A DNA stretch of 64,000 nt from the IMG/VR virus record IMGVR_UViG_3300023179_000012, one strand, 5' to 3'. The stretch is from a virus. A model generated the notes under the pieces. That model was not told where the DNA came from. It did no database searches and was given only the letters and a program-made list of their open reading frames with translations. Every line of letters starts with the position of its first letter. The stretch's first letter is position 1. Positions 46,888 through 62,596 of the stretch are shown in pieces. A program made the translations under genes and the position numbers.

Positions 46888-46974
46888 CGGAATCTGAGGG
46901 ATTCGAACCCCCGGAGGATTTTAACCCTCGGCGGTTTAGTAAACCGCTGCCTTAAACCACTCGGCCAAGATTCC
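46888..46974 (-). tRNA. tRNA-Ser(ACT)
   Basis: GCGGT-TTACTAA-ACCGC; long variable arm; G discriminator. Confidence 0.85.
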
Positions 46975-46977
46975 AAA

Positions 46978-47049
46978 CTGGCTCGGTAGGACTCGAACCT
47001 ACAACCGGGCGGTTAACAGCCGCCAGCTCGACCATTGAGCTACGAGCCA
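46978..47049 (-). tRNA. tRNA-Asn(GTT)
   Basis: GGCGG-CTGTTAA-CCGCC. Confidence 0.92.
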
Positions 47050-47052
47050 ATA

Positions 47053-47123
47053 TTCCGGGACTACGATTTGAACGTAGAATAAAGGATCCAAAGTCCTCTG
47101 TGATACCGTTTCACCATCCCGGA
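47053..47123 (-). tRNA. tRNA-Gln(TTG)
   Basis: AGGA-CTTTGGA-TCCT; acceptor TCCGGGA/TCCCGGA. Confidence 0.88.
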
Positions 47124-47124
47124 G

Positions 47125-47196
47125 AGCCGACAGAGGGAATCGAACCCCCGACAGGTTGTTTACAAAACAACTACTCTACCACTGAGTTACGTCGGC
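47125..47196 (-). tRNA. tRNA-Thr(TGT)
   Basis: GTTGT-TTTGTAA-ACAAC. Confidence 0.92.
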
Positions 47197-47198
47197 AA

Positions 47199-47399
47199 TC
47201 ATTCATTCATCCCTTTAAGGATTCCAACAATAACAGCCACTCCAAATAAAATACCCAAACCACCAGCACTAAAACACGCTGATACAATCATAAATCCAAG
47301 AACTATCATTACTAAAGTGCCACAACCATTATTATCTGATGGTGGTAATCGTCTGGCATCTCTACCAGCGTCTCGCCAAAGTCCATACGGGAAATACAT
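47199..47399 (-). CDS. small membrane protein
   Basis: Two hydrophobic segments. Confidence 0.55.
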   Translation of the reverse strand: MYFPYGLWRDAGRDARRLPPSDNNGCGTLVMIVLGFMIVSACFSAGGLGILFGVAVIVGILKGMNE

Positions 47400-47867
47400 A
47401 TTTCACCTAAATATCATACTCGTTACGCCATAGTTTGTCAATAGCGTTTCGTGTACGGAGCCGCTTGGGCCTGTTGTCCATAGTTGTATCTCGGTATTCC
47501 TTGTGTCCCGTAGGCACTTCCCACGGTTTCTTGACCTTGATTTTGATAACTTTGCGGCGTCGTGGAATATCGTCGTTGTTCTGGAGCGTAATCATGCCAT
47601 TGTCCGTTTTCGTGAAGATAAAATACTTTGTCTACATTAGGATCGTAAGCCATTAAACAATATTGTATAGGATGCTTTACTGGCGTCAAATGCTTTTGTA
47701 TTATGGGTATTTTGATATCACCCTTTTGATAATCCTTTAATCCAGTATACGCTAGCCCTAAGACAGCAACCACTACGCCAATCCATTGTATCATACCATT
47801 TCCTTTTGTCAATCGTCGCTTCATAGATAGTTTATCGACCACGACGAGAAAAAACTTTAATCGTTCC

Positions 47868-47945
47868 TAAGTCATTGATTTGCAAGTACTTAGGATTAGA
47901 TGGCCGGGCCGCCCTTGTCCTAAGTCGTTTAGGATCAAGGGGTTA
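47868..47945. repeat. 78-bp element E4
   Basis: TAAGTCATT-GATTTGC-AAGTACTTA / 28 / TAAGTCGTT-N7-AAGGGGTTA; perfect IHF consensus. Confidence 0.9.
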
Positions 47946-47948
47946 CGA

Positions 47949-48191
47949 TTATTCATTATCGTCGCGGCTTAGTTCCCATCCTGCGGCTCTCACAATACTT
48001 TTTGTAGAGATTACATTAGTTTTAGAATCAGCACTAATATAGTCTCTATATCCACGTTCATCAGCATAAAAATATTCATCAATAATATCAAACTTATTAG
48101 TCATTAGCAGTCCCGTGATACTAGCCTCAAGAGCATCCTTACGACTAATAACAACTTCAAGAGTATTACTCTTTACATAAAACTTAGGCAT
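47949..48191 (-). CDS. hypothetical protein
   Basis: GGAG RBS; 80 aa. Confidence 0.6.
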   Translation of the reverse strand: MPKFYVKSNTLEVVISRKDALEASITGLLMTNKFDIIDEYFYADERGYRDYISADSKTNVISTKSIVRAAGWELSRDDNE

Positions 48192-48365
48192 GGTTCATCT
48201 CCGTTCCCAAATACTTCATATCCTCATCACAATCCGCACAAACCGGCGTACCAGTATCTTGATACCACCACGGCGTTACATTGATTTCATCCTCACAAGA
48301 AACACAACGCCAAACGTGACGGATTTTAGTATCATCAATAACTTGCCAGATTTCCATGATAACTC

Positions 48366-49070
48366 CTAGTGGGCAGGAAAGAGAACATTAGCCAGACCGC
48401 GAACACACAAGTCACACGATATACTATCCTTCGTGCCAGTGCAAGTAATAACAGACCGACCACGACGAATCTCGGGACAAGTTACAAACTTTGTGCCGTT
48501 CAGCACAACCAGTTTCGGCAAAGATTTACGCCAAGCCTCGGCCTTGATTTTGCTCTTGGGTCGCTTGGGTGCAATCTTCATATCGCTATCACACCATGCA
48601 AACTTTTTGAAACCTTGTGCAAGAGCCTCACCCATATCATTATCATCATGCACACTAGCATATACATTCATATACTTTTCCAGACTAACAAGCCGGGAAT
48701 CGTAGATATGAGTATAAAACCACATATCGGGCAGCGTGTCACCATCGGCAAGAATACTCTCACACGCCCACGTTACATTAGCAACATAGTCTAGGTCAAG
48801 TTCGCCATTGAGAAACCAGTCGCCACGCTCATGCCAGCGAATAGACTTTTTACGCTTTTTGGCGTCCAGAATCATAGCACGGATTTTGTTTTTCTCCGTG
48901 ACTACGTTAGCAAAACCAGCAACGCGAGCATTTTTATACTGATTCTCGGTAGCCTCGGCATAGCATCCATTATTGAGATAGTCACAGTCTGGAGGGCAAG
49001 TATCGCCAACCGGACGCGAAACCACAATGCAACCCTTACCCAACTTATCGTTACCGTCTGCTGTTTTCAT
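48366..49070 (-). CDS. Gp88-like phage protein
   Basis: TCPPDC...GCYA, IRWHERGD, WFYTH, FVTCPE, CDLC. Confidence 0.65.
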   Translation of the reverse strand: MKTADGNDKLGKGCIVVSRPVGDTCPPDCDYLNNGCYAEATENQYKNARVAGFANVVTEKNKIRAMILDAKKRKKSIRWHERGDWFLNGELDLDYVANVTWACESILADGDTLPDMWFYTHIYDSRLVSLEKYMNVYASVHDDNDMGEALAQGFKKFAWCDSDMKIAPKRPKSKIKAEAWRKSLPKLVVLNGTKFVTCPEIRRGRSVITCTGTKDSISCDLCVRGLANVLFPAH

Positions 49071-49152
49071 GGCTTTCTCCCTTGGTCTACCGATTCTACA
49101 TTATAGTATCGGCACGGTCAAGCGAAAAACTGTGATAAAAATATTTTTGTTG

Positions 49153-49230
49153 TAAATCCTTGTGGCATCAGCACTTAGAGCAAAACCGGCCCTCCGAATT
49201 CGTCATAAGTCCTTATGCTTCAATAACTTA
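49153..49230. repeat. 78-bp element E5
   Basis: TAAATCCTT-N7-CAGCACTTA / 28 / TAAGTCCTT-N7-AATAACTTA; ends 2 bp from tRNA-Asp 3' end. Confidence 0.9.
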
Positions 49231-49231
49231 G

Positions 49232-49305
49232 CGAGAGCGACGGGACTCGAACCCGCAACCTCTAGCGTGACAGGCTAGCGATCTAACCGATTGATCTACG
49301 CTCCC
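49232..49305 (-). tRNA. tRNA-Asp(GTC)
   Basis: CTAGC-CTGTCAC-GCTAG. Confidence 0.93.
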
Positions 49306-49676
49306 GAATTATAAATTATGATACCAGCATGTATTTCACTATGACAATTTTTACATACTAATATACATTTATCTAATTCTTTTTTTATTTTAGTTTCATT
49401 TTTAGAGAATGACGTATTCTTTATCTTACTTATATTAAAATCTTTTTTAGATGGATGAATATGATGAAAATCTAAAGATCCAATATATTTATTATATCCA
49501 CATATAATACAAGAACTACCCTTATATTCAACACATTTTGCCTTAAAGGCTCTCTGTCGATCTAGAGTATTCTGATGATTACACTTCCTACAATAACTTT
49601 GTATTTTCCCCTTACGATTACCAGATTTTACCTTATATGGTTTCTTTTCTATTTGACCACATTTTACGCATTTCAT
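49296..49676 (-). CDS. HNH endonuclease between two tRNA genes
   Basis: CIICGY...LDFHH...ELDKCILVCKNCHSEIH; much lower GC than flanks (by eye). Confidence 0.88.
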   Translation of the reverse strand: MKCVKCGQIEKKPYKVKSGNRKGKIQSYCRKCNHQNTLDRQRAFKAKCVEYKGSSCIICGYNKYIGSLDFHHIHPSKKDFNISKIKNTSFSKNETKIKKELDKCILVCKNCHSEIHAGIIIYNSGA

Positions 49677-49729
49677 ATTTTACCTCATGGATAGAATCTA
49701 AATATCTATCCATATTATACACCAATAAA

Positions 49730-49802
49730 TACTGCCGGAAGGATTTGCACCCTCGTGAGTCAACTTAGAAGGTTGATGCCTAATCTACTCGGCCACGGCA
49801 GC
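49730..49802 (-). tRNA. tRNA-Arg(TCT)
   Basis: TCAAC-CTTCTAA-GTTGA; T-loop TGCAAAT. Confidence 0.85.
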
Positions 49803-49866
49803 ATAAAACCGATAGCCGCCAGTTATTCACCAGCGGTCTATCGGATATTATAACATTATATTATGC

Positions 49867-50121
49867 TCAGGCAACAGCCTCGGCTTCCGATTCAACCTTG
49901 CCATTATGAGCATCCCCAGCCTGCTTCGCAGTCACACCAGTGACCCTAGCACGCCATACCTTATAACCCTGCTCGCTAAAAGCCTTGACTTCTCCAGCCT
50001 TGACGTTAGCATGAACGTCGCTGGGCAGAGCATCGGTCAGACAGGTGGAGATCGAATCCACCACAACCTCACGGTCAAGATCATCGGCAACAATATCAAC
50101 AACAAAAGAAAACTTCTTCAT
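49867..50121 (-). CDS. hypothetical protein
   Basis: Likely start MKKFSFVVDIV with GGAAAGG RBS. Confidence 0.6.
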   Translation of the reverse strand: MKKFSFVVDIVADDLDREVVVDSISTCLTDALPSDVHANVKAGEVKAFSEQGYKVWRARVTGVTAKQAGDAHNGKVESEAEAVA

Positions 50122-50314
50122 GGTAAAACCTTTCCAAGTAATAGTAGTAAACCCAACAAACACATTATACAAGAACCACAATCGCTTGTCAAGTTGCCAA
50201 TCCGAACTTTCTTAGTGTTGGGATCGGTTGGTCGCTTGTCTTGCGATGCTATCAGTATACCATTGTTATCGTCATTGTCAACAGCGGCTCGTGAATGTTT
50301 TTTTGCTTTTTTCC

Positions 50315-50392
50315 TAAATCATTGAACCATAAGCACTTACGTCAAAATCCCGCCGCCGTCCTTGCTCTAAGTCCTTTAGTAGCAAGGCTTTA
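50315..50392. repeat. 78-bp element E6
   Basis: TAAATCATT-N7-AAGCACTTA / 28 / TAAGTCCTT-N7-AAGGCTTTA. Confidence 0.9.
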
Positions 50393-50394
50393 AG

Positions 50395-50769
50395 TCAAGA
50401 GAGATAACCCTCACAACCCAAAGAGGTCAGATCACGCAGCAACCCTTCAGCCGCGTCGGGAGTCTTAGCGGTGAGAGTGATGGGATTACCACCACCAATC
50501 AAGAAGCCGCCAGCGTCCCACCGACCCACCATACCATCGGTCCAATCCTTCGATTCCTTGAGTCCCCAGCCGGTGTGCTGTCGAACAGCCTTGATGCAAG
50601 AGATACGGTTGTCCAAATCCATACCCTTGGTGATCGTAACCATTCGACGCTGGTTCACACCCAAGACCATCTCAAAAGCCTGCGTGATACGCTCTCTAAT
50701 ATCCTCCCTAGCATAGAAAGAAAGTTCCATAGCCTCACGAACACTCAGTTGCAGATTGATCATATTCAA
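50395..50769 (-). CDS. protein with ribosomal L7/L12 C-terminal-like domain
   Basis: NRISCIKAVRQHTGWGLKESKDWTD matches L7/L12 KxxxIKxVRxxTGLGLKEAK. Confidence 0.75.
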   Translation of the reverse strand: MNMINLQLSVREAMELSFYAREDIRERITQAFEMVLGVNQRRMVTITKGMDLDNRISCIKAVRQHTGWGLKESKDWTDGMVGRWDAGGFLIGGGNPITLTAKTPDAAEGLLRDLTSLGCEGYLS

Positions 50770-51191
50770 ACCCTTTCTTCCAAAATGTAAACTTGTTTGC
50801 CGTTAGTTAATAGAGTAGCATACTCGCTACCGTCCCAAATGAATTCGTTATTGTCGCTTTCTCGTCGCCAGTGCGGATCACGAAGTGGATTATAAAACAA
50901 CTTCTCAAGATTGTCAACAGGCAGAGCGGGATAAAAATCCTTCCTCAACATAACTTCTTCACATCTTACCCACCCACTAACATCATGCACACCAGCCTCA
51001 AACACCTGTTTAGCCTTATTCGGCCTATTCCACAACTTACAACCCCGCATCTCTAACTGATATTTTTTGGGGTCAACGTAGTATACATCAACTGTTTCCC
51101 CACCCTGCTTAACCTTTATTTGCCAGTGCATATAATGCTGGCCATTACTCAGGTGAAATCGAACTTCGCCATGTAGTTTGTTCTGTTTCAT
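50766..51191 (-). CDS. conserved phage hypothetical protein
   Basis: VRFHLSNGQHYMHWQIK...YNP..DPHW. Confidence 0.6.
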   Translation of the reverse strand: MKQNKLHGEVRFHLSNGQHYMHWQIKVKQGGETVDVYYVDPKKYQLEMRGCKLWNRPNKAKQVFEAGVHDVSGWVRCEEVMLRKDFYPALPVDNLEKLFYNPLRDPHWRRESDNNEFIWDGSEYATLLTNGKQVYILEERV

Positions 51192-51239
51192 GCTTATACT
51201 ATACCTTATCGACCAATCGTTGTCAAGACCTTTAAACTT

Positions 51240-51286
51240 TCGCTGACTACAGCCACTCTAGCCAAATCCGAAGGATTAGGAGAAAC
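51240..51286 (+). repeat. repeat family 2
   Basis: TCGCTGACTA...CCAAATCC-GAA-GGATTAGG. Confidence 0.85.
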
Positions 51287-51368
51287 AAGGCTGGCTTCCG
51301 CCATACTCGACCAGCATTTCAGATAGCCTCTTTTGATATCATTGTGGCTATCCCCAAGCCTTGCTCCC
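51279..51368 (-). ncRNA. candidate structured small RNA (3-way junction)
   Basis: Own promoter at 51371-51399; stems GCAAGG/CCTTGT, GATAGCC/GGCTATC, GCTGG/CCAGC; no ORF. Confidence 0.55.
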
Positions 51369-51419
51369 TAAGTCTACCAGTATTATCGGCGTTTGTCAAA
51401 TGGATTCTTTAAAAAATCC

Positions 51420-51497
51420 TAAGTCGTTACTGGATAAGCACTTAGATCAAATTCGCGGCCGCGGCCTCGTCGTAAGTCCTTTAATACCAATCACTTA
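51420..51497. repeat. 78-bp element E7
   Basis: TAAGTCGTT-N7-AAGCACTTA / 28 / TAAGTCCTT-N7-AATCACTTA. Confidence 0.9.
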
Positions 51498-51605
51498 GGT
51501 GCCACCAACCACAAGTACCACACCAGTACCACCACACACCATACTTATCTAGCCTATATGCCATATCATTGTTTTCACCACACACACAAATATCACTAAG
51601 AGTTT

Positions 51606-51860
51606 TCATGTTGGATAATCCTCTGGATAATCTGTTGCTGGTCGCTCTGGTTTTGGTTGACCCTCGTATGGCATCCACCACGGAGCATCCATACGATCCA
51701 CAAGACCGGGACTTTCTTCACAAATAAGAATATGCGGACTCACAGGATCATCACGATGAATCTCATACCGTCCACGCCACACACCAATATCTGGCCCAAA
51801 GTAGTAAACCTTCTGGCCGTTGATAGGGCGACGATAACCAAAAAAACTAAGCCATTCCAT
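51606..51860 (-). CDS. hypothetical protein
   Basis: 84-aa ORF in co-directional run. Confidence 0.55.
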   Translation of the reverse strand: MEWLSFFGYRRPINGQKVYYFGPDIGVWRGRYEIHRDDPVSPHILICEESPGLVDRMDAPWWMPYEGQPKPERPATDYPEDYPT

Positions 51861-51863
51861 TAT

Positions 51864-52106
51864 TTAGCCCTCCCTACGTTTTCCGGTAGCCCTTGTAATA
51901 ATCAAGCACTGAGTACCAGTATCATTATCCGTAAACTTCACACACTCATGAGGCCCATAATACCAAACATCATTCTTTGAGAAGTTGAACACAATCTCTT
52001 CGGTTTTCAGATCGGTATCATTATACCCACCCTCATACCCAAGAGTCAATACCCTCATATCAGCCGGATAGTTTTTCAACTGCTCAATCAGTTCATTAAC
52101 GGTCAT
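51864..52106 (-). CDS. conserved phage hypothetical protein
   Basis: MTVNELIEQLKNYPADMRV...GYEGGY. Confidence 0.65.
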   Translation of the reverse strand: MTVNELIEQLKNYPADMRVLTLGYEGGYNDTDLKTEEIVFNFSKNDVWYYGPHECVKFTDNDTGTQCLIITRATGKRREG

Positions 52107-52278
52107 TTTTACCTCCCATCGTCCCTATAAAGCATCCACCAAGAGGCTGGCATATAACCTTCGTTAGCGAGTCGTGTGCTTTGCTCTCTAGTTTCACCAC
52201 ATGCTCGCCAACACAAATAGCGAACTTCCCAACTATCGTTTTCAGGAAACTGCGGAAATGTCCAGTATGGATCACTCA

Positions 52279-52542
52279 TTATTCATCCTCCGATGGAAAC
52301 AGTTCATCCCAATGACTAGGGCTAATGCCAGACAGCAGAATCTCACGATCATCCGCACTAAGATGCGGAAAACAGTTTTGGATACTCTCTCCATTTATCC
52401 AACGATTAGCATCGCTCAGTTTGGTAGTTATACTGAACGGATGATTATCGAATAGACACTCTCCAGAGAAAGTTATATTTTCACCATCAGCACTAACGCT
52501 ACGAGTAACCCGGTCAGAAAAAGCAAATCGTGTTCCAAGCAT
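52279..52542 (-). CDS. hypothetical protein
   Basis: IQNCFPHLSADDREILLSGI motif; GGAG RBS; promoter upstream. Confidence 0.65.
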   Translation of the reverse strand: MLGTRFAFSDRVTRSVSADGENITFSGECLFDNHPFSITTKLSDANRWINGESIQNCFPHLSADDREILLSGISPSHWDELFPSEDE

Positions 52543-52621
52543 ATGTTCTCTCCTTTGGTTGTATTCTACTATCTAGTATCGGCTCTGTCAATAGGGAAAC
52601 TTGAAGAGATTTTGCTTACCA

Positions 52622-52699
52622 TAAAGCGTTTTTGCGTAAGCACTTGCGTCAAAGCCGCGGCCTCCACCTCTCCGTAAGTCCTTACGGGACAAGGCTTTA
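52622..52699. repeat. 78-bp element E8
   Basis: TAAAGCGTT-N7-AAGCACTTG / 28 / TAAGTCCTT-N7-AAGGCTTTA. Confidence 0.88.
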
Positions 52700-52704
52700 T
52701 AAAA

Positions 52705-53130
52705 ACCAGCGAATCTTTTACGCCCCGATTCTATTACCCATATGGCAACCCTGTTACGGACCATAGGAAACCGCCCACGGAAACCTTCCTAAGATTGGTC
52801 ATGACTCAATCTATCTGGCTCTTGGGGACGGTTACTGGTTGTGTTGCTTCGCAACTTATATTGTGTGGTATTCTTGTGTGTACTAAAAAATACCCAAAAA
52901 ACCTATACTGGGAAACGGCTATCCAGTACTTGCCGACGATTTTTAACTTTTCATTGACAGAATCAGTAAAACTGTATGTTGGTCGTGGTGAGGACGCGAT
53001 CCCCCATAGATTGGTACTTCTATCCAACGTATAACCCCGTTGGCAACTCCCCCAGTCTTTCAGAGAAAGTTTATCGAAATAGGTTATCCCAATCTAGTCC
53101 TAGGCATGGACCCACGAAAGTTTGTATTGT
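52705..53130 (-). ncRNA. candidate large structured ncRNA (about 420 nt)
   Basis: Dense hairpins at 52711-31, 52741-64, 52765-90, 52843-55, 52867-94, 52906-28, 53024-43; no convincing RBS-led ORF. Confidence 0.5.
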
Positions 53131-53133
53131 CAA

Positions 53134-53232
53134 GGGCGAAGGATGGAATCGAACCACCTCTAAGCATTTGGTTGCCTACTCCACCAGTTTGGTGTCTCGG
53201 ACTTCTCGTGCTACCATTACACTACATTCGCC
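53134..53232 (-). ncRNA. tRNA-like RNA with expanded, non-canonical anticodon domain
   Basis: Acceptor GGCGAA(T)G/CTTCGCC; D-arm GTGT-AATGGTA-GCAC; T-arm GGTGG-TTCGATT-CCATC; 49-nt centre. Confidence 0.6.
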
Positions 53233-53240
53233 ATATTTTA

Positions 53241-53362
53241 GGGACGGATGGATTCGTTGATGCTTTGGCGTCACAGGCAACTGCCTCAGCCCGCGCTCTC
53301 AACTTGACCATCTACTTCACTGCCGTTTTACCGGGAAGTTGCTCACGCAACCTAGCAGTCCC
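53241..53362 (-). ncRNA. candidate structured small RNA
   Basis: GGGAC/GTCCC closing stem; GTTGC-GTGA-GCAAC GNRA hairpin; GATGG/CCATC and GTTGA/TCAAC stems. Confidence 0.55.
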
Positions 53363-53454
53363 TATTGTATTGTCAATGATCGGCTGAACTCTTGTATTCT
53401 ACAGTCTATTATCGACCTGTCAATAGGGTTTTCTTGAAAAAATATTTTTTAACG

Positions 53455-53532
53455 TAAGATATTGAGAAGCAAGCACTTACGACGATCCCGGCCCGGCGAG
53501 TTTGCCCTAAGTCCTCTTGTGCTAAGAACTTA
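53455..53532. repeat. 78-bp element E9
   Basis: TAAGATATT-N7-AAGCACTTA / 28 / TAAGTCCTC-N7-AAGAACTTA. Confidence 0.88.
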
Positions 53533-53544
53533 GAGCGAACCCTT

Positions 53545-53727
53545 TTAGTAGTCGGCCTCAATAGGCTCATCACACCTATAGTTAGAATCTATCAAAACTT
53601 CTGGACGAAACTTGCTCAGTTTCTCGTCTCTGCAATCCACACAAACCCGTGCCAGCGGAATACCCCTAGCATCGCTCTCCCACCAACTATTCTTTTGAGA
53701 TCCACACGGACAATACTTTGTTATCAT
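53545..53727 (-). CDS. small Cys-containing phage protein
   Basis: CPCGSQKNSWWESDARGIPLARVCVDC. Confidence 0.6.
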   Translation of the reverse strand: MITKYCPCGSQKNSWWESDARGIPLARVCVDCRDEKLSKFRPEVLIDSNYRCDEPIEADY

Positions 53728-54206
53728 GCTTGTACCTCGTCATCAGAAAAAAAGTTTTCCATGTCGAACTCATTCCATAAAGCAACAGGAATCATATCCT
53801 TACTCTTATACTCAATATAGTTGTCAACTCCATTATCATAGAGTCCACAAAAAGACATACCCGGCTCGAAATAGGATGCTTTTACATTGTATCCCAAATC
53901 TACCAGTTCGTTATACAGTCCAATAGGAGGACTCCAAGCAGAGTCAAAAGAACAACTAGCCTGATTACCAACAACAGTAGCCTTCAAGCCGTGCCATTCT
54001 TCTCGTTCCGTACCCTCGTCAGCCCCAATATCCCACTTTACTCCCCAGTTATTCACACAAAAATCCCACCAACCATCGCCAATATCTGCGGGCATAGGAA
54101 TAAACTCGTTACACACAGTTCCCTTGTTGTATGTTTTCACAAATCGGTCGAGCATAGAGGGATCGGAGTGTTCAACGGTCAACTTGTTCAAGCACCAGTT
54201 AGGCAT
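53724..54206 (-). CDS. DUF1281/YubB ferredoxin-like domain protein
   Basis: MPNWCLNKL, WCVNNWGVKWDI-like, FDSAWSPP, YFEPGMSFCG. Confidence 0.75.
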   Translation of the reverse strand: MPNWCLNKLTVEHSDPSMLDRFVKTYNKGTVCNEFIPMPADIGDGWWDFCVNNWGVKWDIGADEGTEREEWHGLKATVVGNQASCSFDSAWSPPIGLYNELVDLGYNVKASYFEPGMSFCGLYDNGVDNYIEYKSKDMIPVALWNEFDMENFFSDDEVQA

Positions 54207-54458
54207 ATTATCCTCAGTTAGTAGTAGTGGTCAAAGCAGAATACTTACCATCACGCCTAGCAGCCTCAAGAGCATCACAGAAAAAATCACTAAAATCTTC
54301 CATAACGCTCAAAGCATCTTCTCTAGTACCATCCAGAATAGCATCAGTAAATACTATCACAAAATCAGCAACCCGCTCACGAACCATCACAATCTCTTTT
54401 TTGCTCAACATCTCTCTCCCCTTTTCAATCTTTATACCAAAACCCAATCCGTTGTCAA

Positions 54459-54531
54459 TAGCCCCACGGAGGATCGAACTCCGATCTCCGGGATGAAAGC
54501 CCGGTATACTAAACCATTATACTATGGGGCC
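54459..54531 (-). tRNA. tRNA-Glu(TTC)
   Basis: CCGGG-CTTTCAT-CCCGG. Confidence 0.92.
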
Positions 54532-54733
54532 GAGACTCGCTCAATCCAAATATAGTCACCATATTTAGCCTGTGCTTTTTTCATAGCATCAAACTCGCTC
54601 AAAGCGACAATGTAGCCAGCAAACTTATTGTTTGCAAATACACGCCAAGTATAACCAGCATAGCAGTTAGCAGTAGTCATAGCGTTATTCTAATCTATTA
54701 TCGGCACTTGTCAAGAGAAGTCTTTAGTTTTTC

Positions 54734-54811
54734 TAAGTTGTTGCAGTATAAGGACTTACAACAAATCCGGCCCCGCAGCCATGCCCTAAGTCCTTGTTTA
54801 ACAAAGACTTA
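54734..54811. repeat. 78-bp element E10
   Basis: TAAGTTGTT-N7-AAGGACTTA / 28 / TAAGTCCTT-N7-AAAGACTTA. Confidence 0.9.
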
Positions 54812-54828
54812 GAGCAACTGGCCGAGAA

Positions 54829-55239
54829 TCAGAACAGAAGACTAGCAAGGCCGGTTTTGAACGCGACCCCACCAAGGAGGGGACGACGCACATTGCGTGT
54901 ACGCTCCGCGTAGAAGTTGCGAATCTTACCGTCCGGAGTTTGAGCAGTCACAAGATGACGGCTACGCTCAAAGTTCGGATCATTTCTACGATACCTACTT
55001 TTACTATTCAGTCGAGCAAGATAATCGTCAGAAAATCGGTGAACACCAATAACCCTAGCCATAAAACGTTCAGGATCACCAGTAACAGGCTGCACATATT
55101 CAAAGTTATAAACACCACCAACCCTAGCATTTGTCAGACTATCACGAAGACCACTATACAGATGGAAAACGCTAAAAGCCACAATGCCAGAAACCGCACC
55201 AACAACCGCACACAAACCAATCAGAACTTCGTTAGTCAT
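54829..55239 (-). CDS. membrane-anchored hypothetical protein
   Basis: Likely start MTNEVLIGLCAVVGAVSG (TM). Confidence 0.6.
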   Translation of the reverse strand: MTNEVLIGLCAVVGAVSGIVAFSVFHLYSGLRDSLTNARVGGVYNFEYVQPVTGDPERFMARVIGVHRFSDDYLARLNSKSRYRRNDPNFERSRHLVTAQTPDGKIRNFYAERTRNVRRPLLGGVAFKTGLASLLF

Positions 55240-55331
55240 CAGACACCCTTTCGTTGTGAAAATCAAACACCTAGTACGCACATTCTACAGTATTATCGTC
55301 GTGTGTCAAGCCCAAACTTTAGAGATTTTGG

Positions 55332-55637
55332 TCACTCGCCATCATCATAATAGCCGTAACCATCATCACTATGAAAATCCTCACAACAGTCTACATCTTC
55401 GCCAAAATAACCGTAATCCTCATCGGTTCCCCATCCAGCGGAAGACAATGCACTCTCAGTATCGCCATCCATACTATCATCATACGAATCATCCCAACTG
55501 TTCTCCAACTCCTCGCCATCAATCTCGCCGTAAAAATCATTGTAATCGTCATAGTTCGACGCATCAACATCATCAGCGTAGTTCATATCATCCTCATAAG
55601 AGTTATCGGGATCGAACAGGGGGTCAGGATGGCTCAT
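55332..55637 (-). CDS. hyper-acidic protein (101 aa, 37 D/E, no K/R)
   Basis: MSHPDPLFDPDNSYEDD...; GGAG RBS; promoter at 55664-55691. Confidence 0.75.
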   Translation of the reverse strand: MSHPDPLFDPDNSYEDDMNYADDVDASNYDDYNDFYGEIDGEELENSWDDSYDDSMDGDTESALSSAGWGTDEDYGYFGEDVDCCEDFHSDDGYGYYDDGE

Positions 55638-55722
55638 CTTAGGTTTCTCCGTTGTGTGATCCGATTCTATATCTATTATCGACGTTGTCAAGTGTAGAAC
55701 TTTAAAAATATCTTTTTTGTTC

Positions 55723-55800
55723 TAAATCCTTATATAGCAAGTACTTACGATTCGCCCGGCGGCGCCACTCTAACGTAAGTCCTTATTTTCCAAAGAGTTA
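55723..55800. repeat. 78-bp element E11
   Basis: TAAATCCTT-N7-AAGTACTTA / 28 / TAAGTCCTT-N7-AAAGAGTTA. Confidence 0.9.
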
Positions 55801-55802
55801 GA

Positions 55803-56060
55803 TTATTTGAGAATATATTCTATTTCTTGTCCATTCGCAATCATAGCAGCATATATCTCAATACGCTTATCTTTCTCCCGTTTCTCAATCTGATGGTCGG
55901 TTTCTGTTACATCACGAGAATCGCACTTTCGCTCAAGATCAGCCAGGGTAACACCATCGGTACGATGGTCACGAAAATCCTCCGGCAACCACGAGTTAGG
56001 CACCACCACAATATCCCGCACAACTCGCTCAAACTCAGCAATCAGTTCATAACCGTTCAT
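55803..56060 (-). CDS. hypothetical protein
   Basis: Likely start MNGYELIAEF with AAGGAG RBS. Confidence 0.6.
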   Translation of the reverse strand: MNGYELIAEFERVVRDIVVVPNSWLPEDFRDHRTDGVTLADLERKCDSRDVTETDHQIEKREKDKRIEIYAAMIANGQEIEYILK

Positions 56061-56130
56061 TTTCTTCTCCTTGGTTGTGAGGCAGTCTATCAAAATCTTT
56101 TTGGCTTGTCAACAGCAAAATCCCACTTTT

Positions 56131-56178
56131 TCGCTGACTACAGCCACACTGACCAAATCCGTAGGATTGGCTGAGACT
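56131..56178 (+). repeat. repeat family 2
   Basis: TCGCTGACTA...CCAAATCC-GTA-GGATTGGCTGAGACT. Confidence 0.85.
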
Positions 56179-56400
56179 AATCGAAATCTCTCATAGCCTG
56201 TCGCTTCTGGTCACTGCGAGTGCGAAGTCGCTTGGGTCGGTTGTCGTGCTGACCAGATCCAGACATATGGCTAGAATGACCCTTACCCATCTCCCACACT
56301 GGACGAATGTTCAGCCGAATCGCGTCGTATTTCTTTCGCTTGCTCATACTCGTATCCTACCATATATTATCGGCTAGTCAATAGAGAATCTTTATTTTTC

Positions 56401-56478
56401 TAAGTCTTTGATACACAAGTACTTACGAAAAAATCGCCGCGCCCGGCTCGACGTAAGTCCTTGCCGGGGTTAGAGTTA
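56401..56478. repeat. 78-bp element E12
   Basis: TAAGTCTTT-N7-AAGTACTTA / 28 / TAAGTCCTT-N7-TTAGAGTTA. Confidence 0.9.
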
Positions 56479-56553
56479 CGAGTTAACCACCCATGCGGCA
56501 GCACACCCAACAACAAAACTTATTACAAATACGCAAATATCCAAAACTTTCAT
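56476..56553 (-). CDS. 25-aa single-TM microprotein
   Basis: MKVLDICVFVISFVVGCAAAWVVNS; ATGA overlap with upstream ORF. Confidence 0.5.
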   Translation of the reverse strand: MKVLDICVFVISFVVGCAAAWVVNS

Positions 56554-56654
56554 TCTTTTCCCCTTATAGGATAAACCAAATCACGAACACTATAACTAGC
56601 AAACACACCGATAATAAATCCCACACCGATTTGTACCCAGTTAATATCGGCCAT
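56550..56654 (-). CDS. 34-aa single-TM microprotein
   Basis: MADINWVQIGVGFIIGVFASYSVRDLVYPIRGKE. Confidence 0.5.
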   Translation of the reverse strand: MADINWVQIGVGFIIGVFASYSVRDLVYPIRGKE

Positions 56655-56668
56655 CCCTAGCCCCTTTC

Positions 56669-56752
56669 TTAAATGTTTTTCCCGTACTCAATAATAGCAC
56701 ACATTACTCCTGCAAAAATAATCAGGAATAGCATACTAATAAAATAACCCAT
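56669..56752 (-). CDS. 27-aa single-TM microprotein
   Basis: MGYFISMLFLIIFAGVMCAIIEYGKNI; TGATG overlap with upstream ORF. Confidence 0.5.
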   Translation of the reverse strand: MGYFISMLFLIIFAGVMCAIIEYGKNI

Positions 56753-57060
56753 CACGATACCACCATCCCATCAATAAAAGGGTATTCCTTACCATTAATC
56801 TTAACATACCAAGTAAAATCCCTCTGGTAAACCCGTACCGGGCTATACTGGTTAATCCTATCCTTAGTGGTAACAGTTTGCCAACCCCCACTATTAAGGG
56901 TATAGGTGCCATCATCCCGAATCTTTACAACGTATGTACTGTGCAACTTAATAGCCACAGTATTATCGCTCAGGATTTCCGCATAGGTATTATTACCAAT
57001 CTTTCGGCTATCCTTATTCCGCTTGCCACGAACCATCTTAATCGCTTCGGCGTGTGTCAT
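56752..57060 (-). CDS. conserved phage hypothetical protein
   Basis: LHSTYVV...TLNSGGWQTVTTKDRIN. Confidence 0.65.
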   Translation of the reverse strand: MTHAEAIKMVRGKRNKDSRKIGNNTYAEILSDNTVAIKLHSTYVVKIRDDGTYTLNSGGWQTVTTKDRINQYSPVRVYQRDFTWYVKINGKEYPFIDGMVVS

Positions 57061-57161
57061 TTTCTTTTCTCCTTACTTCTATTATCGGTATTTTACAGGC
57101 TAAACTTGAGAAAGTCAAGAAAATAATCCTGTGCCAAATGCGAATATTTTTTAGAATGTCC

Positions 57162-57239
57162 TAAGTCCTTATGGGGCAAGTACTTACGCAAAAATCGCCA
57201 CGGCCCCCGCGTCATAAGTCTTTACGCGGAAAGGCTTTA
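57162..57239. repeat. 78-bp element E13
   Basis: TAAGTCCTT-N7-AAGTACTTA / 28 / TAAGTCTTT-N7-AAGGCTTTA; ends 3 bp from IHF/HU stop. Confidence 0.92.
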
Positions 57240-57241
57240 TG

Positions 57242-57523
57242 TCAACTGTTCAACTGTTCAGCCATAACTTTACCCGGCTTGAATCGCACCACACGCCGCT
57301 GTCCGATCATCACGGCTTCGCCCGTGCGAGGATTGCGGGCCTTGCGAGGTGCGGTCACCTTTACGGTGAACACCCCGAAGTTTCGCAGTTCGATGCGTCC
57401 AGTTTCGACCAGCGTTGCTATCATATTGTCCAGAGTAGCCTGCACGATCTCGCGTGCCTGCTGACCCGTAACGCCAACCCGCTCCGCAACCTGTTCGACC
57501 ATACCACGCTTCGTTCCGATCAT
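57242..57523 (-). CDS. IHF/HU-family DNA-bending protein
   Basis: TKRGMVEQVA...GRIELRNFGVF...ARNPRTGE...VVRFKPGK; intercalating Pro in RNP retained. Confidence 0.95.
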   Translation of the reverse strand: MIGTKRGMVEQVAERVGVTGQQAREIVQATLDNMIATLVETGRIELRNFGVFTVKVTAPRKARNPRTGEAVMIGQRRVVRFKPGKVMAEQLNS

Positions 57524-57573
57524 TTCACTTTCTCCGTTGTGATGTTTCTATTCTACAGCCACTATTCTAAAAA

Positions 57574-57750
57574 TCAAGAGCAAAAATCTGCTGGCTCGGG
57601 ATACATTTCTTCCCACAACCCAGTCACTTCGGCATAATCAAACGGGTCGCAATCAACCTCGTCGATAGGTTCGACCATAGGCTCGATCATACCATCGTCA
57701 GCGAGTTGAGAGAGGATAGCGTTGATGGTATCGGTGTCATCGAGGATCAT
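57574..57750 (-). CDS. small acidic protein (58 aa, 17 D/E, no K/R)
   Basis: MILDDTDTINAILSQLADDG...; GGAG RBS; promoter upstream. Confidence 0.6.
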   Translation of the reverse strand: MILDDTDTINAILSQLADDGMIEPMVEPIDEVDCDPFDYAEVTGLWEEMYPEPADFCS

Positions 57751-57881
57751 ATCGTTTCTCCGTTGGGGTGATGCGATGATTCTACAGTTATTATCGACAA
57801 ATGCAAGCCCACACCTTGAGAATAATCCTATGCCAAACTAAAAATATTTTCTGACACGGTATTTTCTTGGATCATTTTCTC

Positions 57882-57959
57882 TAAGTGCTTGTGCAGAAAG
57901 GACTTAGGAAAAATCCGGCCCGGCGTCCTCGCCGTAAGTCTTTACGGATCAAGGACTTG
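57882..57959. repeat. 78-bp element E14
   Basis: TAAGTGCTT-N7-AAGGACTTA / 28 / TAAGTCTTT-N7-AAGGACTTG. Confidence 0.9.
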
Positions 57960-58570
57960 CGTCATTATTTAGATAACACGCAATAACATAGGCCAACATA
58001 ACTAATAATAAATGTAAGTGCAGCAAGCATTATAATATTCCTTTATTTGGCGTGAATAAATACGTTTTTACTAGCGGTCTGATTTGTTACAGTCACAATC
58101 CAGTTTTTTCCGCTACCATCTTCCCGAAGAATACCGTTGATGATACCAACGTGTACATTACCCTTGGGATCAGTAACAGTGCCATACTTTCCAGACCGCA
58201 TAGCACTCATAATCTTATCAAGACTATTCATTATACTATAACCTTTCAGTTAGCGTTAGCAGGCTCAAAAATATCCAGAACATTACACTTGTCAACATAG
58301 ATTGAACGATATCCATGCTCACACTTGACGGTGAGAAGAATACGCTCTCCAAACTGACGCACCCTAGTCACAACGCCGTCAACAACCTCTCCGTTGTTAT
58401 ACTCGGCATGAACAGCATAACCAGCCATGGGAACCTTACTCGTCATTCTACCCTTTCTTTCTCTCTTCTATTATCGACATTATACAGGCGATTCTTTAGG
58501 TTGCAAGCAAAATCTTTGGATTTTTGTGTCAAGATTTTTTGACAAAACTTTTCTGTTTTTCGGTATGGTT

Positions 58571-58586
58571 TGGCATACCGTTTGCT
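58571..58586 (+). promoter_or_regulatory. sigma54-type -24/-12 motif
   Basis: TGGCATACCGTTTGCT (GG-N10-GC); C(-12) is 15 bp before E15. Confidence 0.65.
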
Positions 58587-58600
58587 GATGCGATTTTCCC

Positions 58601-58678
58601 TAAGTCGTTACGCTGTAAGTACTTACGTCAAATTCGCTGCGCCCATATCGTCGTAAGTCCTTACGCCGTATGGGTTTG
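58601..58678. repeat. 78-bp element E15
   Basis: TAAGTCGTT-N7-AAGTACTTA / 28 / TAAGTCCTT-N7-ATGGGTTTG. Confidence 0.9.
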
Positions 58679-59170
58679 CGTCAACTCTGTCCCGGATAGA
58701 TTCTTCCGCTCTTGAGTCGCTGTACAAGCGTATCGTAATCGTCAGTCGTGAACAGCGTATAATAAGCATCCCGCTCCTGCACGATCCACTTGCGAGTGTA
58801 TCCGTTCCACACACTAGCCACGACCACACCGAGAGAGTTAGCCAGAGATACGATTTCAGCATTCATTTTCAAGATACTCCCATCCAAGATGCTTTTTCCA
58901 CACAGTAATCATAGAATATATCGTTCAAAACTTCAAGATGGTTTTTTTCGGTCAAACGACGACGAGCAAGGATAGCATCGCACTCTGCGAAAAACTTACC
59001 CGTGGACACTTCATATACAATCGTACACGCATACGATTCGCTTCCCCAAATCCTAGCCTTAACATCAACGAACTTCTTCAACATCTGTTTTCTCCTCTTC
59101 TCTCTTCTATTATCGACATTCTATCAGACTTTCTTCAACATTTCAAGAGGGCAAAAAAGATTTTTGTAGC

Positions 59171-59186
59171 AGCAAATATCGTGCCA
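59171..59186 (-). promoter_or_regulatory. sigma54-type -24/-12 motif
   Basis: TGGCACGATATTTGCT on minus strand, adjacent to E16 left edge. Confidence 0.65.
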
Positions 59187-59190
59187 ATCA

Positions 59191-59268
59191 TAAGTCGTTG
59201 TCTGATAAGCACTTAGGCACAAGTCGTGCCGCCGAGTTCGACGCAAGTCCTTACGCCACAAGGATTTA
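59191..59268. repeat. 78-bp element E16
   Basis: TAAGTCGTT-N7-AAGCACTTA / 28 / CAAGTCCTT-N7-AAGGATTTA. Confidence 0.9.
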
Positions 59269-59323
59269 CGTCGAATTGTTGTACAGTAGTGTACAGGCTT
59301 ATATCCCCATAATAGGGGGCTTA

Positions 59324-59647
59324 TTACCCCTCCCACCCAAAGGGGGATACTTCCTCACCGCAAGCCTGAATAGCGGCATACTGTTCGATTAGAGCCTCTA
59401 CACGTTCACGCGATCCAGGTTTGCCAACCTTCACGATCATGGTATCCTCACCACCAACCATGCGAGAATCTACCTTCTCGCTCTTGCTCTTGCCGATATT
59501 CTTCAATGCGGTGCGATTGAACTTCAGCACCTTTTCGCTGCGAATCGTTCCACCATCTGCGTTAGTTTTGTCGCAAGGGATAGCGATACCAACGAAGCAC
59601 ATACGGGCAACTCGCTCAGCATCACGAACAATCTTAGGCTTTTTCAT
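59324..59647 (-). CDS. hypothetical basic protein
   Basis: 107 aa; AGGAG RBS. Confidence 0.6.
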   Translation of the reverse strand: MKKPKIVRDAERVARMCFVGIAIPCDKTNADGGTIRSEKVLKFNRTALKNIGKSKSEKVDSRMVGGEDTMIVKVGKPGSRERVEALIEQYAAIQACGEEVSPFGWEG

Positions 59648-60024
59648 TTTCTTTCTTTCTCCTTTGGATGATGGATCGTACTAAACTTTTCCCTGTGACG
59701 CAACCCCTCAAATGAGGGACGCTTCGCGCTCCTTGCGAAACTTGATGGCGTACAGTTCGTCCACAACAACGCGAACCACGGTATCCATGCTGACACTCTT
59801 GTGGGTATAGTATCCACAATGGATAGCGAACAGGCTATACGTACCGGGAACACCGGATGGTATCGACCCCACACTGTGGGGGTGAAGGGTAAAACCCGCA
59901 TTGTAAGCGTAACGGCGAATACTCTTGCGAATCGTTTCAATTTTTGGGATTCTCATCTCTATCTCTCTTTCTCTTTCCAGTATTATACCAAACTTTTTCG
60001 ACAGCACAACCCCCACAACGGGGG

Positions 60025-60201
60025 TCACCATCCGTTTCTCCGACACTCATCGGCCCAATCCCGATCCTCTTGACGGGTACGATCATTATACCCGTATCCA
60101 CCATAGGTAAGGTAGTTATCCTTCATGGCATCGTATCCATCATCCGAATCGTGAACATCGTCAAAATCTTCGTAATCGTACAGGGGGTCAGGGCAACTCA
60201 T
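60025..60201 (-). CDS. small acidic protein, paralog of 55332..55637 (58 aa)
   Basis: MSCPDPLYDYEDFDDVHDSDDGY... vs MSHPDPLFD...HSDDGY. Confidence 0.6.
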   Translation of the reverse strand: MSCPDPLYDYEDFDDVHDSDDGYDAMKDNYLTYGGYGYNDRTRQEDRDWADECRRNGW

Positions 60202-60232
60202 TTTTCACTCTCTCTTTCTTACCTCTATATAG

Positions 60233-60248
60233 TGCATGTTCTGTGCCA
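60233..60248 (-). promoter_or_regulatory. sigma54-type -24/-12 motif upstream of ORF at 60201
   Basis: TGGCACAGAACATGCA. Confidence 0.6.
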
Positions 60249-60355
60249 AAAGTCGAAAAATATTTTTGTGCGACTTTCTCGACGATTTCCGCAGGCTGTC
60301 ACCTTGGCACTATGTCATATTGGCAAAGTCTGCCATTTTTGGCTGCCGTATTGTT

Positions 60356-60371
60356 TGGCACGATATCTGCT
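60356..60371 (+). promoter_or_regulatory. sigma54-type -24/-12 motif
   Basis: TGGCACGATATCTGCT; 15 bp before E17. Confidence 0.65.
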
Positions 60372-60385
60372 GTGGTCATTTGATC

Positions 60386-60463
60386 TAAGTCGTTATGCCA
60401 CAAGTACTTACGTCGAATCCGCGGCCGCGAATTTTTCGTAAGTCCTTACGCCGTAAGGGTTTG
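60386..60463. repeat. 78-bp element E17
   Basis: TAAGTCGTT-N7-AAGTACTTA / 28 / TAAGTCCTT-N7-AAGGGTTTG. Confidence 0.9.
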
Positions 60464-61215
60464 CATCAAGTCGTTGTACAGTAGTGTACAGGCGTACACC
60501 CCACTACAGTGGGGATGCACAAGCGTACACTGAGCCGAATGGTACGTTATGCTGATTAGCATATACTGAACGAGCATCCGCCCAATCCTTAGCAAGTACC
60601 ATGCCAAGGTAGAAATCATTTTCCGAATTGTAGATATAGTAGGTTTTCATGATTAGGAGATCAGTTCCATATCCTCATTGTAGCACTCGTACTCATCTCC
60701 GTCAATCTCTACGTGCCACACATCACCCTCATCGAAATGCCAGCGAATGATTCGACCAATCTTTCCGTCAACCTTCACCTTATCACCAAGAGCAAACTGC
60801 ATTTTCTTTCTCCTTACTTCTTATATCGGTATTCTATCAAATATTTTTTAGATTATCTACCCCCTTATCGGGGGATCGTAATCAGATCACCAAAATGTGA
60901 GAACGTCAACTTGAGAACCCTATTCGGATATTTCTCATCGATATACTTCTGTGCAGTGCTTTTCCGATTATCGGTAGCACTCACACCCTGTACAACTGTA
61001 CCGTTCTCATCAATCACCTTCCAAACCTTCTTTTGAACGATACGCGGAAGGCTTTGGATGAAATCGTTGATATGAGTAACCTTTTCCATTTTTCTTTCTC
61101 TCTTTCTTTCTTCTCTTTTCTCTTGTGCTTTCATTATACAGTATATATCGGCCATTGCAAGCGAAATCTTTTGAAAAAATAAAAAATAATTCTGTGCCAA
61201 ATCAAAAAAACTTTT

Positions 61216-61231
61216 TGGTATACCGTTTGCT
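61216..61231 (+). promoter_or_regulatory. sigma54-type -24/-12 motif
   Basis: TGGTATACCGTTTGCT; 15 bp before E18. Confidence 0.65.
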
Positions 61232-61245
61232 CTCTCGATTTCTTC

Positions 61246-61323
61246 TAAACCCTTATACCACAAGCACTTACACGCTCTTCGGCGTGACAAACAAGACGTA
61301 AGTCCTTATAATATCAGCACTTA
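61246..61323. repeat. 78-bp element E18
   Basis: TAAACCCTT-N7-AAGCACTTA / 28 / TAAGTCCTT-N7-CAGCACTTA. Confidence 0.9.
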
Positions 61324-61515
61324 GAGAGAGGGGGTTTTTCTGTTTCTTCTCCAGTCTCAAAACCTCTGACCCTAAACCCGCGGTGGTCCAAACATAGTAA
61401 GCAAACCATATATAATTGGCCAGTTTAATGACAAGTTTCCCCATTATTAAATAAAAAAACAGGCACCAATTATGAGTTGATGCCCGTTTCTTTAGTATTC
61501 TACAGATTCTTTACT

Positions 61516-61740
61516 TCAAACGTCCGAAACCGACTCGACCTTTGGAGCTGATGGTCTACGACCTCTTGGCTTGGCAATTGACAACTTTCGCCTCTGACGT
61601 CTAACCATTCCCACAGTAATTTGTCGGCTACCATCAATCTTGTTTAAATAAGTGGCAATTTCCTCGTCCTTCATATTTTTGCTGTTATTAGCAATAAAGT
61701 CTGTTTCTTCTTTTGTCCACTTTTTATAAGTTTTTGACAT
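61516..61740 (-). CDS. small HTH/Myb-like DNA-binding protein
   Basis: KKWTKEETDFI...DEEIATYL...VRRQRRKL; last minus-strand gene before the strand switch. Confidence 0.55.
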   Translation of the reverse strand: MSKTYKKWTKEETDFIANNSKNMKDEEIATYLNKIDGSRQITVGMVRRQRRKLSIAKPRGRRPSAPKVESVSDV

Positions 61741-61945
61741 TTTATCCTCCTGCATAAGTTGCTTATTGTGTATCAAACATCTATAATAGTATAAATGTCA
61801 CAAAATTCTGGTCAAGGTAAACCCATGAAAAATTCTAAAAACATACATACAATATCATCAACTTTAAAAACAGTTGCTAGCGAAAACCTTGTAACAGAAG
61901 CAGAGTTACAAAACCTAGACGATAAACCGCTAGAGGAACTACTTA

Positions 61946-62596
61946 ATGAGCAAAAACAAGAAAACGCCCAAGAAAAAGACCAATTTACCCAACAACATAA
62001 CGGATGAAGAATTTATAACAGTATGGGAAAAAATTAGTAAAAAATTAGGCTATAAATTTAAGTTTGGGTATCATAGTCACGAGGATATGAAGCAACAGGC
62101 CGCCATATTCGCCTTGGAAGGACTTAAAAATTATGATAATAAAAGGCCCCTAGAAAATTTCTTATGGACCCACGTGAGAAATCGACTCTTTAATTACAAA
62201 AGAGATAACTATCAAAGGCCCGATAAACCCTGCTTCACCTGTCCTTTTTACAAACCAAATGATAGTGCTTGTTCTAGTGGTTGTTCAGAATTTAAAAACA
62301 AAAGTGATTGTGAATTATTCGCCTCATGGAGCAAACGAAACGATACCAAAAAAAATATTATGAAACCAGTTGGTATAGATAATGTTAACGAAAATAGTAC
62401 CGAAATAGTTGACTTTAATCTTCTGGACGCTATTAGTAACAAAGAAATTATTAAAATTATAGATAATAATATTAGTATTAAAAATCGCCCCATATTTCTC
62501 AAATTGCTAGGAGGCAGCAAAGTTTCTAAGCTTGAAGTTAACAAACTAGTCAAAGAAATAAAAAAAATATTAAAAGACAATGACATCAACTCCTAA
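61946..62596 (+). CDS. sigma70-family (region 2) phage sigma factor-like protein with Cys-rich insert
   Basis: HEDMKQQAAIFALEGLKNYDNKRPLENFLWTHVRNRLFNYKRD, then CFTCPFY...CSSGC...C. Confidence 0.7.
   Translation: MSKNKKTPKKKTNLPNNITDEEFITVWEKISKKLGYKFKFGYHSHEDMKQQAAIFALEGLKNYDNKRPLENFLWTHVRNRLFNYKRDNYQRPDKPCFTCPFYKPNDSACSSGCSEFKNKSDCELFASWSKRNDTKKNIMKPVGIDNVNENSTEIVDFNLLDAISNKEIIKIIDNNISIKNRPIFLKLLGGSKVSKLEVNKLVKEIKKILKDNDINS

Follow-up and report, generated by a model that had tools for sequence, protein, structure and literature searches.

What reads a motif that has the form of a bacterial sigma-54 (RpoN) promoter, recurs between the early genes of a phage and mostly points against their direction? 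The question is raised by a stretch of 64,000 nucleotides from IMG/VR virus record IMGVR_UViG_3300023179_000012 (this whole stretch is referred to as the window), a portion of a large uncultured freshwater phage in which every gene from position 1 to about 61.4 kb lies on the minus strand. From about 44 to 61.4 kb, the window carries an array of small genes, many of which are preceded by a sigma-70-type promoter, with 18 copies of a 77-78-bp element (hereafter the 78-bp element) in between. Sigma-54 is usually regarded as a host route for stress responses and metabolism which is ignored by phages. Here, the sigma-54 consensus is a selected part of an early-gene control module that recurs in more than 100 related freshwater phage contigs, and as an overlapping pair it is found in at least 91 unrelated contigs.

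Within the window, six sites between 57.0 and 61.4 kb fit the pattern TGGCAY-N5-TTGCW, referred to as motif A (in the following, mismatches are counted against TGGCAC-N5-TTGCW and bits refer to a weight matrix built from related contigs only). Three of them are located on the plus strand and thus antisense to every gene of the array: 58571..58586 at E15 (one mismatch, 24.6 bits, predicted +1 at 58597), 60356..60371 at E17 (one mismatch, 21.3 bits, predicted +1 at 60382) and the TGGTAT variant 61216..61231 at E18 (two mismatches, 20.9 bits, predicted +1 at 61242), where E13 to E18 denote the 78-bp elements starting at 57162, 57882, 58601, 59191, 60386 and 61246. The other half of the copies are sense on the minus strand, comprising a perfect consensus at 59171..59186 (no mismatch, 25.8 bits, predicted +1 at 59160), which follows E16 by 4 nt and lies upstream of a sigma-70-type promoter at 59146-59118, a copy at 60233..60248 (one mismatch, 17.5 bits, predicted +1 at 60222) and one at 60591..60606 (one mismatch, 20.6 bits, predicted +1 at 60580) within a small open reading frame (ORF) at 60504-60650 (48 aa). 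All but the last of these had been located correctly in an initial annotation of the sequence, to which the copy at 60591 is an addition. Counted over the whole window at two or fewer mismatches, 29 sites compare with 19.6 expected, which is a weak excess; the weight-matrix scan of 57.0-61.4 kb returned six matches of at least 17.5 bits, whereas first-order Markov shuffles predict 0.03 from 14 bits upward and none of 200 shuffles contained more than one.

The plus-strand copies share a register with the elements. Their -12 C (58585, 60370 and 61230) precedes by 15 nt the base immediately ahead of the TAAG of E15, E17 and E18, as had been noticed initially, so that 14 nt separate each 16-mer from the TAAG at 58601, 60386 and 61246, and the predicted antisense starts fall 3-4 nt before the element. 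An identical spacing is kept at E14 by a decayed copy of repeat family D8 (57852..57867, plus strand; two mismatches, below 8 bits), which has lost both the GG and the GC. All four plus-strand copies are members of a single longer repeat family (D3 and D8; a 125-nt repeat), and their common register is therefore to be attributed to the shared descent of a longer repeat module instead of four independent events. In the L117 ortholog of the E17 copy, GG and GC are retained, with three of the five spacer bases being different.

Selection on the motif becomes apparent in the relatives. Scanning IMG/VR for the inner arms of the element yielded 117 loci with about 1 Mb of sequence and 524 elements, in which TGGCAY-N5-TTGCW occurs in 145 exact copies (155 distinct copies under a slightly looser pattern) against less than one expected from composition. 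The zone up to 60 nt from an element edge accounts for 6% of the sequence and contains 64% of the exact copies, and in whole related genomes the reversed pattern had no match, compared with 20 and 39 matches of the forward one. The iteratively refined logo reads ttTGGCAY-R-n-n-ATTTGCt and thus matches the published sigma-54 promoter consensus TGGCAC-N5-TTGCW (PMC12316311). Its strongest positions are GG and GC, with about 2.2 bits each and exactly 10 nt apart, and the N5 spacer and the linker to the element drift (0.01-0.4 bits); likewise, the two doublets are kept across homologous sites with variable spacers and flanks, as is typical of sigma-54 promoters. The sigma-54-type -24/-12 element claimed in the initial annotation is accordingly real and under selection.

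The arrangement of motif and element follows a preference of side and orientation. Among 376 distinct elements that could be oriented by the coding strand, the motif was located 83 times on the promoter side, with 57 copies pointing into the element (antisense) and 26 away from it (sense), and three times on the other side. No motif A is present within 70 nt of 293 of these elements (78%), and copies in both orientations also exist away from elements. The antisense copies of the relatives fall into two spacing classes of 8-10 and 14-15 nt, half a helical turn apart, with all antisense copies of the window belonging to the 14-nt class. The initially proposed lock between motif and element is thus not rigid, and what selection keeps is the motif core and not a fixed spacing. 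One relative of 122 kb features 12 antisense copies, all in one orientation and one per unit of about 1 kb. In two others (L007 and L036), the place of E18 is taken by two tandem plus-strand motif copies with three or four terminator-like hairpins behind them.

In the relatives, sense copies usually precede the start codon by 100-150 nt, and a small CCTTAC-N7-GTAAGG palindrome and a TTGCAA-N17-TATAAT promoter follow downstream of them. This palindrome, for example in L052, L063 and L109, separates the sense motif copies from the early-promoter -35 and is composed of the GTAAG half-sites that also make up the 78-bp element. Three sense copies are found as close as 31-49 nt to the start codon, in units which have no sigma-70-type promoter, namely the copy at 60233 in the window and those of L117 and L014. 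At 60233, the ATG of gene 60025-60201 (at 60201) comes 21 nt after the predicted +1 and 31 nt after the 3' end of the motif, and a search for a sigma-70-type promoter on the minus strand between 60385 and 60201 found none. E17 is placed 138-215 bp upstream of this copy, which is the only one with an element at enhancer distance, taken as 80-200 bp upstream. Between the antisense and the sense motif of the E17 unit (60300-60360, plus strand), four TTGGCW repeats are spaced by 15-19 bp and include a TGGCA-N5-TGCCA palindrome; they are conserved in L117.

Our preferred reading, held tentatively and with somewhat less than even confidence, is that the motifs are docking sites of the host sigma-54 holoenzyme which act as activator-gated promoters, mostly in antisense direction. 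They form part of an extended version of the intergenic module in the first 4 kb or so of the early-gene array, flanked by the 78-bp element on one side and by the next gene's sigma-70-type promoter on the other. The host holoenzyme would dock at these sites, its firing being gated by a host enhancer-binding ATPase. Sense copies could then provide a second, sigma-70-independent expression of some early genes, and for gene 60025-60201 the copy at 60233 is apparently the sole promoter. From the commoner antisense copies, transcription would begin 3-4 nt ahead of the element, cross it and enter the 3' end of the preceding gene, thereby opposing or insulating early transcription once the host ATPase is active. 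The antisense transcription envisaged in the initial annotation would thus apply to the plus-strand copies it had singled out, and not to the sense half. If sigma-54 polymerase indeed reads the sites, these phages would tie part of their programme, or its shut-off, to host signalling that needs an ATPase activator, or they would titrate that system.

Several observations weigh against this reading. Ten related contigs, of which five are complete, yielded neither an RpoN DNA-binding domain nor a Sigma54_activat domain, so that neither the phage-encoded AAA+ enhancer-binding protein considered in the initial annotation nor an RpoN gene was found in them, although an activator may be supplied by the host; weak AAA+ matches to Sigma54_activat were rejected as RuvB-like proteins. 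In the host, rpoN would have to be presumed; a MAG that is a weak lead to it does have the gene (see below). Two thirds of the element-adjacent copies are antisense, and a position upstream of a gene and in its direction, as expected of a sigma-54 promoter, is taken in the window by the copies at 59171 and 60233 only and not by the three on the plus strand. Complete related genomes carry 2-7 copies (a sixth relative, 86% complete, has 12), so the sites are dispensable, and some copies are followed by an intrinsic terminator within about 8 nt. The element, a candidate enhancer for a sigma-54 activator, contains two dyads 53 bp apart and is located downstream of the antisense copies, from +4 to +82. 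In addition, a related motif is conserved without the -12 GC, and overlapping motif pairs resemble operator arrays more than promoters, as exemplified by the unrelated phage L196 with four tandem pairs within 170 bp (418-596).

The pairs are interdigitated copies of motif A with the form TGGCAY-N5-TTGC-N5-GCAA-N5-RTGCCA, a 35-bp palindrome, and were found in at least 120 IMG/VR stretches, with less than one expected by chance. At least 110 further pair loci (L175-L284) were obtained in this way, at least 91 of them without DNA similarity to the clade and ranging from 28 to 66% in GC content. A 78-bp-type element is present in 16 of the 110 new pair loci listed, and no protein family within 4 kb of the pairs exceeds 20 loci among the matches listed. 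A terminase-like ORF of 433 aa is located within 4 kb of a pair in 20 loci among these matches. Since the pair occurs in phages of such different base composition and without a common neighbour family, a conserved protein of the host is a likelier reader than one encoded by the phages. To our knowledge, sigma-54 is the only protein with this specificity, and the pair distribution favours such a conserved host reader, i.e., sigma-54 RNA polymerase. A layout of divergent genes around the pairs in unrelated phages was contradicted by a crude ORF test, in which the genes were mostly co-directional. The four stacked pairs of L196, which adjoin other repeated motifs, look like an operator array or a sponge.

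A decoy role and an unrelated DNA-binding protein are serious alternatives, each about half as likely as activator-gated promoters. In the first case, the sigma-54 holoenzyme would bind without firing, the sites either serving as a decoy, with host sigma-54 polymerase being sequestered on replicating phage DNA, or carrying poised closed complexes as marks of the cassette boundaries. At many sites that are not promoters, the sigma-54 holoenzyme is known to form inactive closed complexes (PMC4591121), and the lack of an activator gene in the related phage contigs, the flexible orientation of the motif and the maximal site density of overlapping pairs, with up to eight sites in 170 bp in unrelated phages, would all suit such a role. 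Nevertheless, we consider it less likely, given that the 60233 copy occupies a true promoter position, that a decoy needs neither a strong antisense bias nor a fixed side of the element, and that the complete relatives contain as few as 2-7 copies. Moreover, intragenic sigma-54 binding in Escherichia coli left the expression of the overlapping genes unchanged (PMC4591121), a negative precedent which also weakens the poised roadblock over early genes proposed in the initial annotation.

The second case, in which a DNA-binding protein of phage or host that is unrelated to sigma-54 would use the motif as its operator, recognize TTTGGCAY and regulate the neighbouring sigma-70-type early promoters from about -60 to -110, draws on a further motif of the array. 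Motif B, with the consensus TTTGGCAYGRAATTATATTT, consists of a -24-like TTTGGCAY followed by an A/T-rich stretch without the -12 GC. Its 46 conserved copies in the relatives are sense, about 22 nt upstream of the -35 and often back to back with an antisense motif A. The window holds three, corresponding to the -24-only copies reported initially and all on the minus strand in sense direction: 57120..57138 at E13, directly upstream of the -35 hexamer, 57820..57837 at E14, back to back with the decayed motif A, and 61183..61201 at E18, back to back with the motif A at 61216, the latter two at 21 bp from centre to centre. The conservation of motif B without the GC suggests that the reader may need TTTGGCA only. 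An operator would account for the TTTGGCAY-R-n-n-ATT that motif B keeps at a fixed distance upstream of the -35, for the inverted TGCCA...TGGCA pairs which motifs A and B form at 21 or 33 bp (two or three helical turns), for the conserved TTGGCW repeats in the E17 spacer and for the palindromic form of the 35-bp pairs, as known from sites of dimeric proteins. It is less likely all the same, because all informative positions of motif A coincide with the sigma-54 consensus, GG and GC being the strongest, most copies are single and asymmetric, and the motif extends to at least 91 unrelated phages of widely differing GC content that share no neighbouring protein family.

In a broader and rather speculative view, to which we assign a low probability, many unrelated uncultured phages, including the present clade, would carry dense sigma-54 docking sites (single, back to back or as interdigitated 35-bp palindromes) without an activator of their own and capture the host sigma-54 polymerase. 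The sites could then serve as a sponge that disarms sigma-54-dependent stress responses, or as a host-signal-gated antisense switch that shuts early cassettes, with the 78-bp element as operator at +1. Finally, a motif without a reader of its own, carried as a passenger in a repeat module for the recombination or shuffling of early-gene cassettes, would agree with the plus-strand copies lying in the 125-nt repeat family D3, with the decay of the E14 copy and with the resemblance of an array of small variable genes, each with its own promoter, to the PeSL regions of T4-type phages (PMC2839356), but is very improbable, as GG and GC keep about 2.2 bits next to a drifting 14-nt linker and N5 spacer, and as the motif is found in both orientations and apart from elements.

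Other readers and other kinds of site were considered as well. TTGGCA as the -35 hexamer of a sigma-70 promoter was rejected, with no -10 present at 16-18 nt, and the phage's own sigma-70-family factor is an unlikely reader, the conserved blocks being about 11 bp apart and not about 23 bp. An RNA hairpin was rejected for the 78-bp element, in which changes at variable arm positions affect one side only, 37-69% are still paired and covariation is lacking, and likewise for the motif pairs, in which the motif letters alone are complementary and the N5 spacer is not. Because of these arms without covariation and these non-complementary spacers, both the element and the face-to-face motif pairs look like double-stranded DNA sites for proteins. 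The elements next to the motif A copies extend over 57882..57958 (E14), 58601..58677 (E15), 59191..59267 (E16), 60386..60462 (E17) and 61246..61322 (E18, the final element of the array); in E14, four TAAGnnCTTA-like half-sites form two dyads of 25 bp at a distance of 53 bp. A 16-bp palindrome of two TGTACA units is located just upstream, in gene sense, of E16 (59280-59295) and E17 (60475-60490) within a 117-nt repeat.

Compared with bacterial sigma-54 promoters (PMC12316311), motif A shows the same core consensus, in which GG and GC, 10 nt apart, are best conserved, and the copy at 60233 with its 21-nt leader and the two-dyad element 138-215 bp upstream corresponds to the classical enhancer layout. 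In contrast, the phage copies are predicted sites known from sequence, are mostly antisense or mutually overlapping, and are in some cases directly followed by a terminator or a protein-binding palindrome; an activator gene and a recognisable enhancer were not found in the related phage contigs. The sole phage precedent encountered in a literature search comes from Pseudomonas phage YuA, in which one sigma-54-like promoter has had its start mapped (Ceyssens et al., 2008, as cited in PMC10914365). YuA relies on host sigma-54 for part of its transcription, as the present phages would, and has no sigma-54 of its own either. It differs in that this one promoter is sense, whereas the present phages carry several copies per genome, mostly antisense and within a repeat module, in more than 100 uncultured contigs. 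E. coli and Salmonella also possess intragenic or antisense sites for sigma-54 (PMC4591121, PMC3844500), which are similar in that consensus sites hold inactive holoenzyme away from ordinary promoters, some of them antisense and with conserved, non-random positions; these are scattered in host genes and mostly sense, unlike the intergenic, repeat-borne sites of the phage. The PeSL cassettes of T4-type phages (PMC2839356) are also repeated modules, placed among small variable early genes that each possess a strong sigma-70-type promoter, and are a likely substrate for modular shuffling. The array shares with them its strong sigma-70-type promoters and hairpin-forming C/G runs at the unit boundaries, between small variable early genes. 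While a PeSL consists of sigma-70 promoter and terminator hairpin, the module described here adds a 78-bp four-site double-stranded DNA element and a sigma-54-type site. The literature search found no paper on antisense-biased sigma-54-type sites in a repeat module, nor on interdigitated pairs across many phages.

Regarding the host, the phage encodes a DUF1501 protein (6418-7662, minus strand; 358 bits), whose best match, with 48% identity over the full length, comes from a freshwater Planctomycetota metagenome-assembled genome (MAG) with a GC content of about 45%. This MAG comprises 98 DUF1501 paralogues and an RpoN gene with the RpoN DNA-binding domain. The match hints, though weakly, at a host from Planctomycetota or a related phylum. 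In the same MAG, the element palindrome GTAAG-NN-CTTAC was not enriched, with three matches compared to seven for the control. For the transfer-messenger RNA (tmRNA) gene of the phage (7802-8158, minus strand; tag peptide GNTQLALAA), a BLAST search against about 900 bacterial genomes of three phyla gave matches to its conserved 3' end only, and psbA, taken as a cyanophage marker, is absent from the five complete relatives. Searching bacterial genomes for the element pattern gave mostly chance matches; contigs with multiple hits turned out to be pieces of phage DNA that had been assigned to freshwater MAGs of several phyla from Lake Mendota and Lake Lanier.

The phage itself has no DNA-level match in the INPHARED database by megablast and blastn, and the protein search with its DNA ligase led at best to large Bacillus siphophages with 30-34% identity. 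Related IMG/VR contigs reach 229-244 kb, and four of the five examined feature direct terminal repeats. Ten tRNA genes and one tmRNA gene are present in the window, and an Rfam scan of it detected tRNAs and the tmRNA only. GC content rises from about 32% to about 44% over 44000-61400, exactly the element-bearing early array, and returns to 33% beyond 62 kb. E18 is followed on its right by one more small leftward gene (61516-61776, 86 aa), then by a divergent promoter region and by the gene of a sigma-70-family sigma factor (61946..62596, plus strand), which thus diverges from the array and adjoins its motif-rich end. The factor matches Sigma70_r2 with 19 bits, below the cut-off, which is exceeded by its homologues in three relatives. 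In three of the five complete genomes, most motif copies occur on the array side of the sigma-factor gene, no farther than about 12 kb from it. An HU/IHF-family DNA-binding protein (57242..57523, minus strand; PF00216, E = 5.9e-28) is encoded within the array; of the IHF-like bends invoked in the initial annotation, it is the presence of this gene that could be confirmed.

The sigma-70-type promoter of the E15 unit (58479..58506, minus strand) consists of TTGCAA, 16 nt and TATAAT, and similar promoters on the same strand are found at 57090-57118, 59118-59146 and 61133-61160. After the -10 of early promoters, a conserved CGATAAT/CGATATAAGAAG block is present (57090-57075, 58479-58465 and others), which may be a signal of the initial transcribed region or a second -10. 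Beyond E18, a block at 61405-61434 (minus strand) and 61330-61400 is conserved with L007 and L036 and holds a promoter-like TTGTCA...TATGGT site, which may be the first leftward promoter of the array. Additionally, the minus strand encodes a SIR2-family protein (16225-17043), a GT47 exostosin-like glycosyltransferase (30019-30864), a DUF932 protein (44477-45421) and a Kyanoviridae Gp96-like protein (56752-57060).

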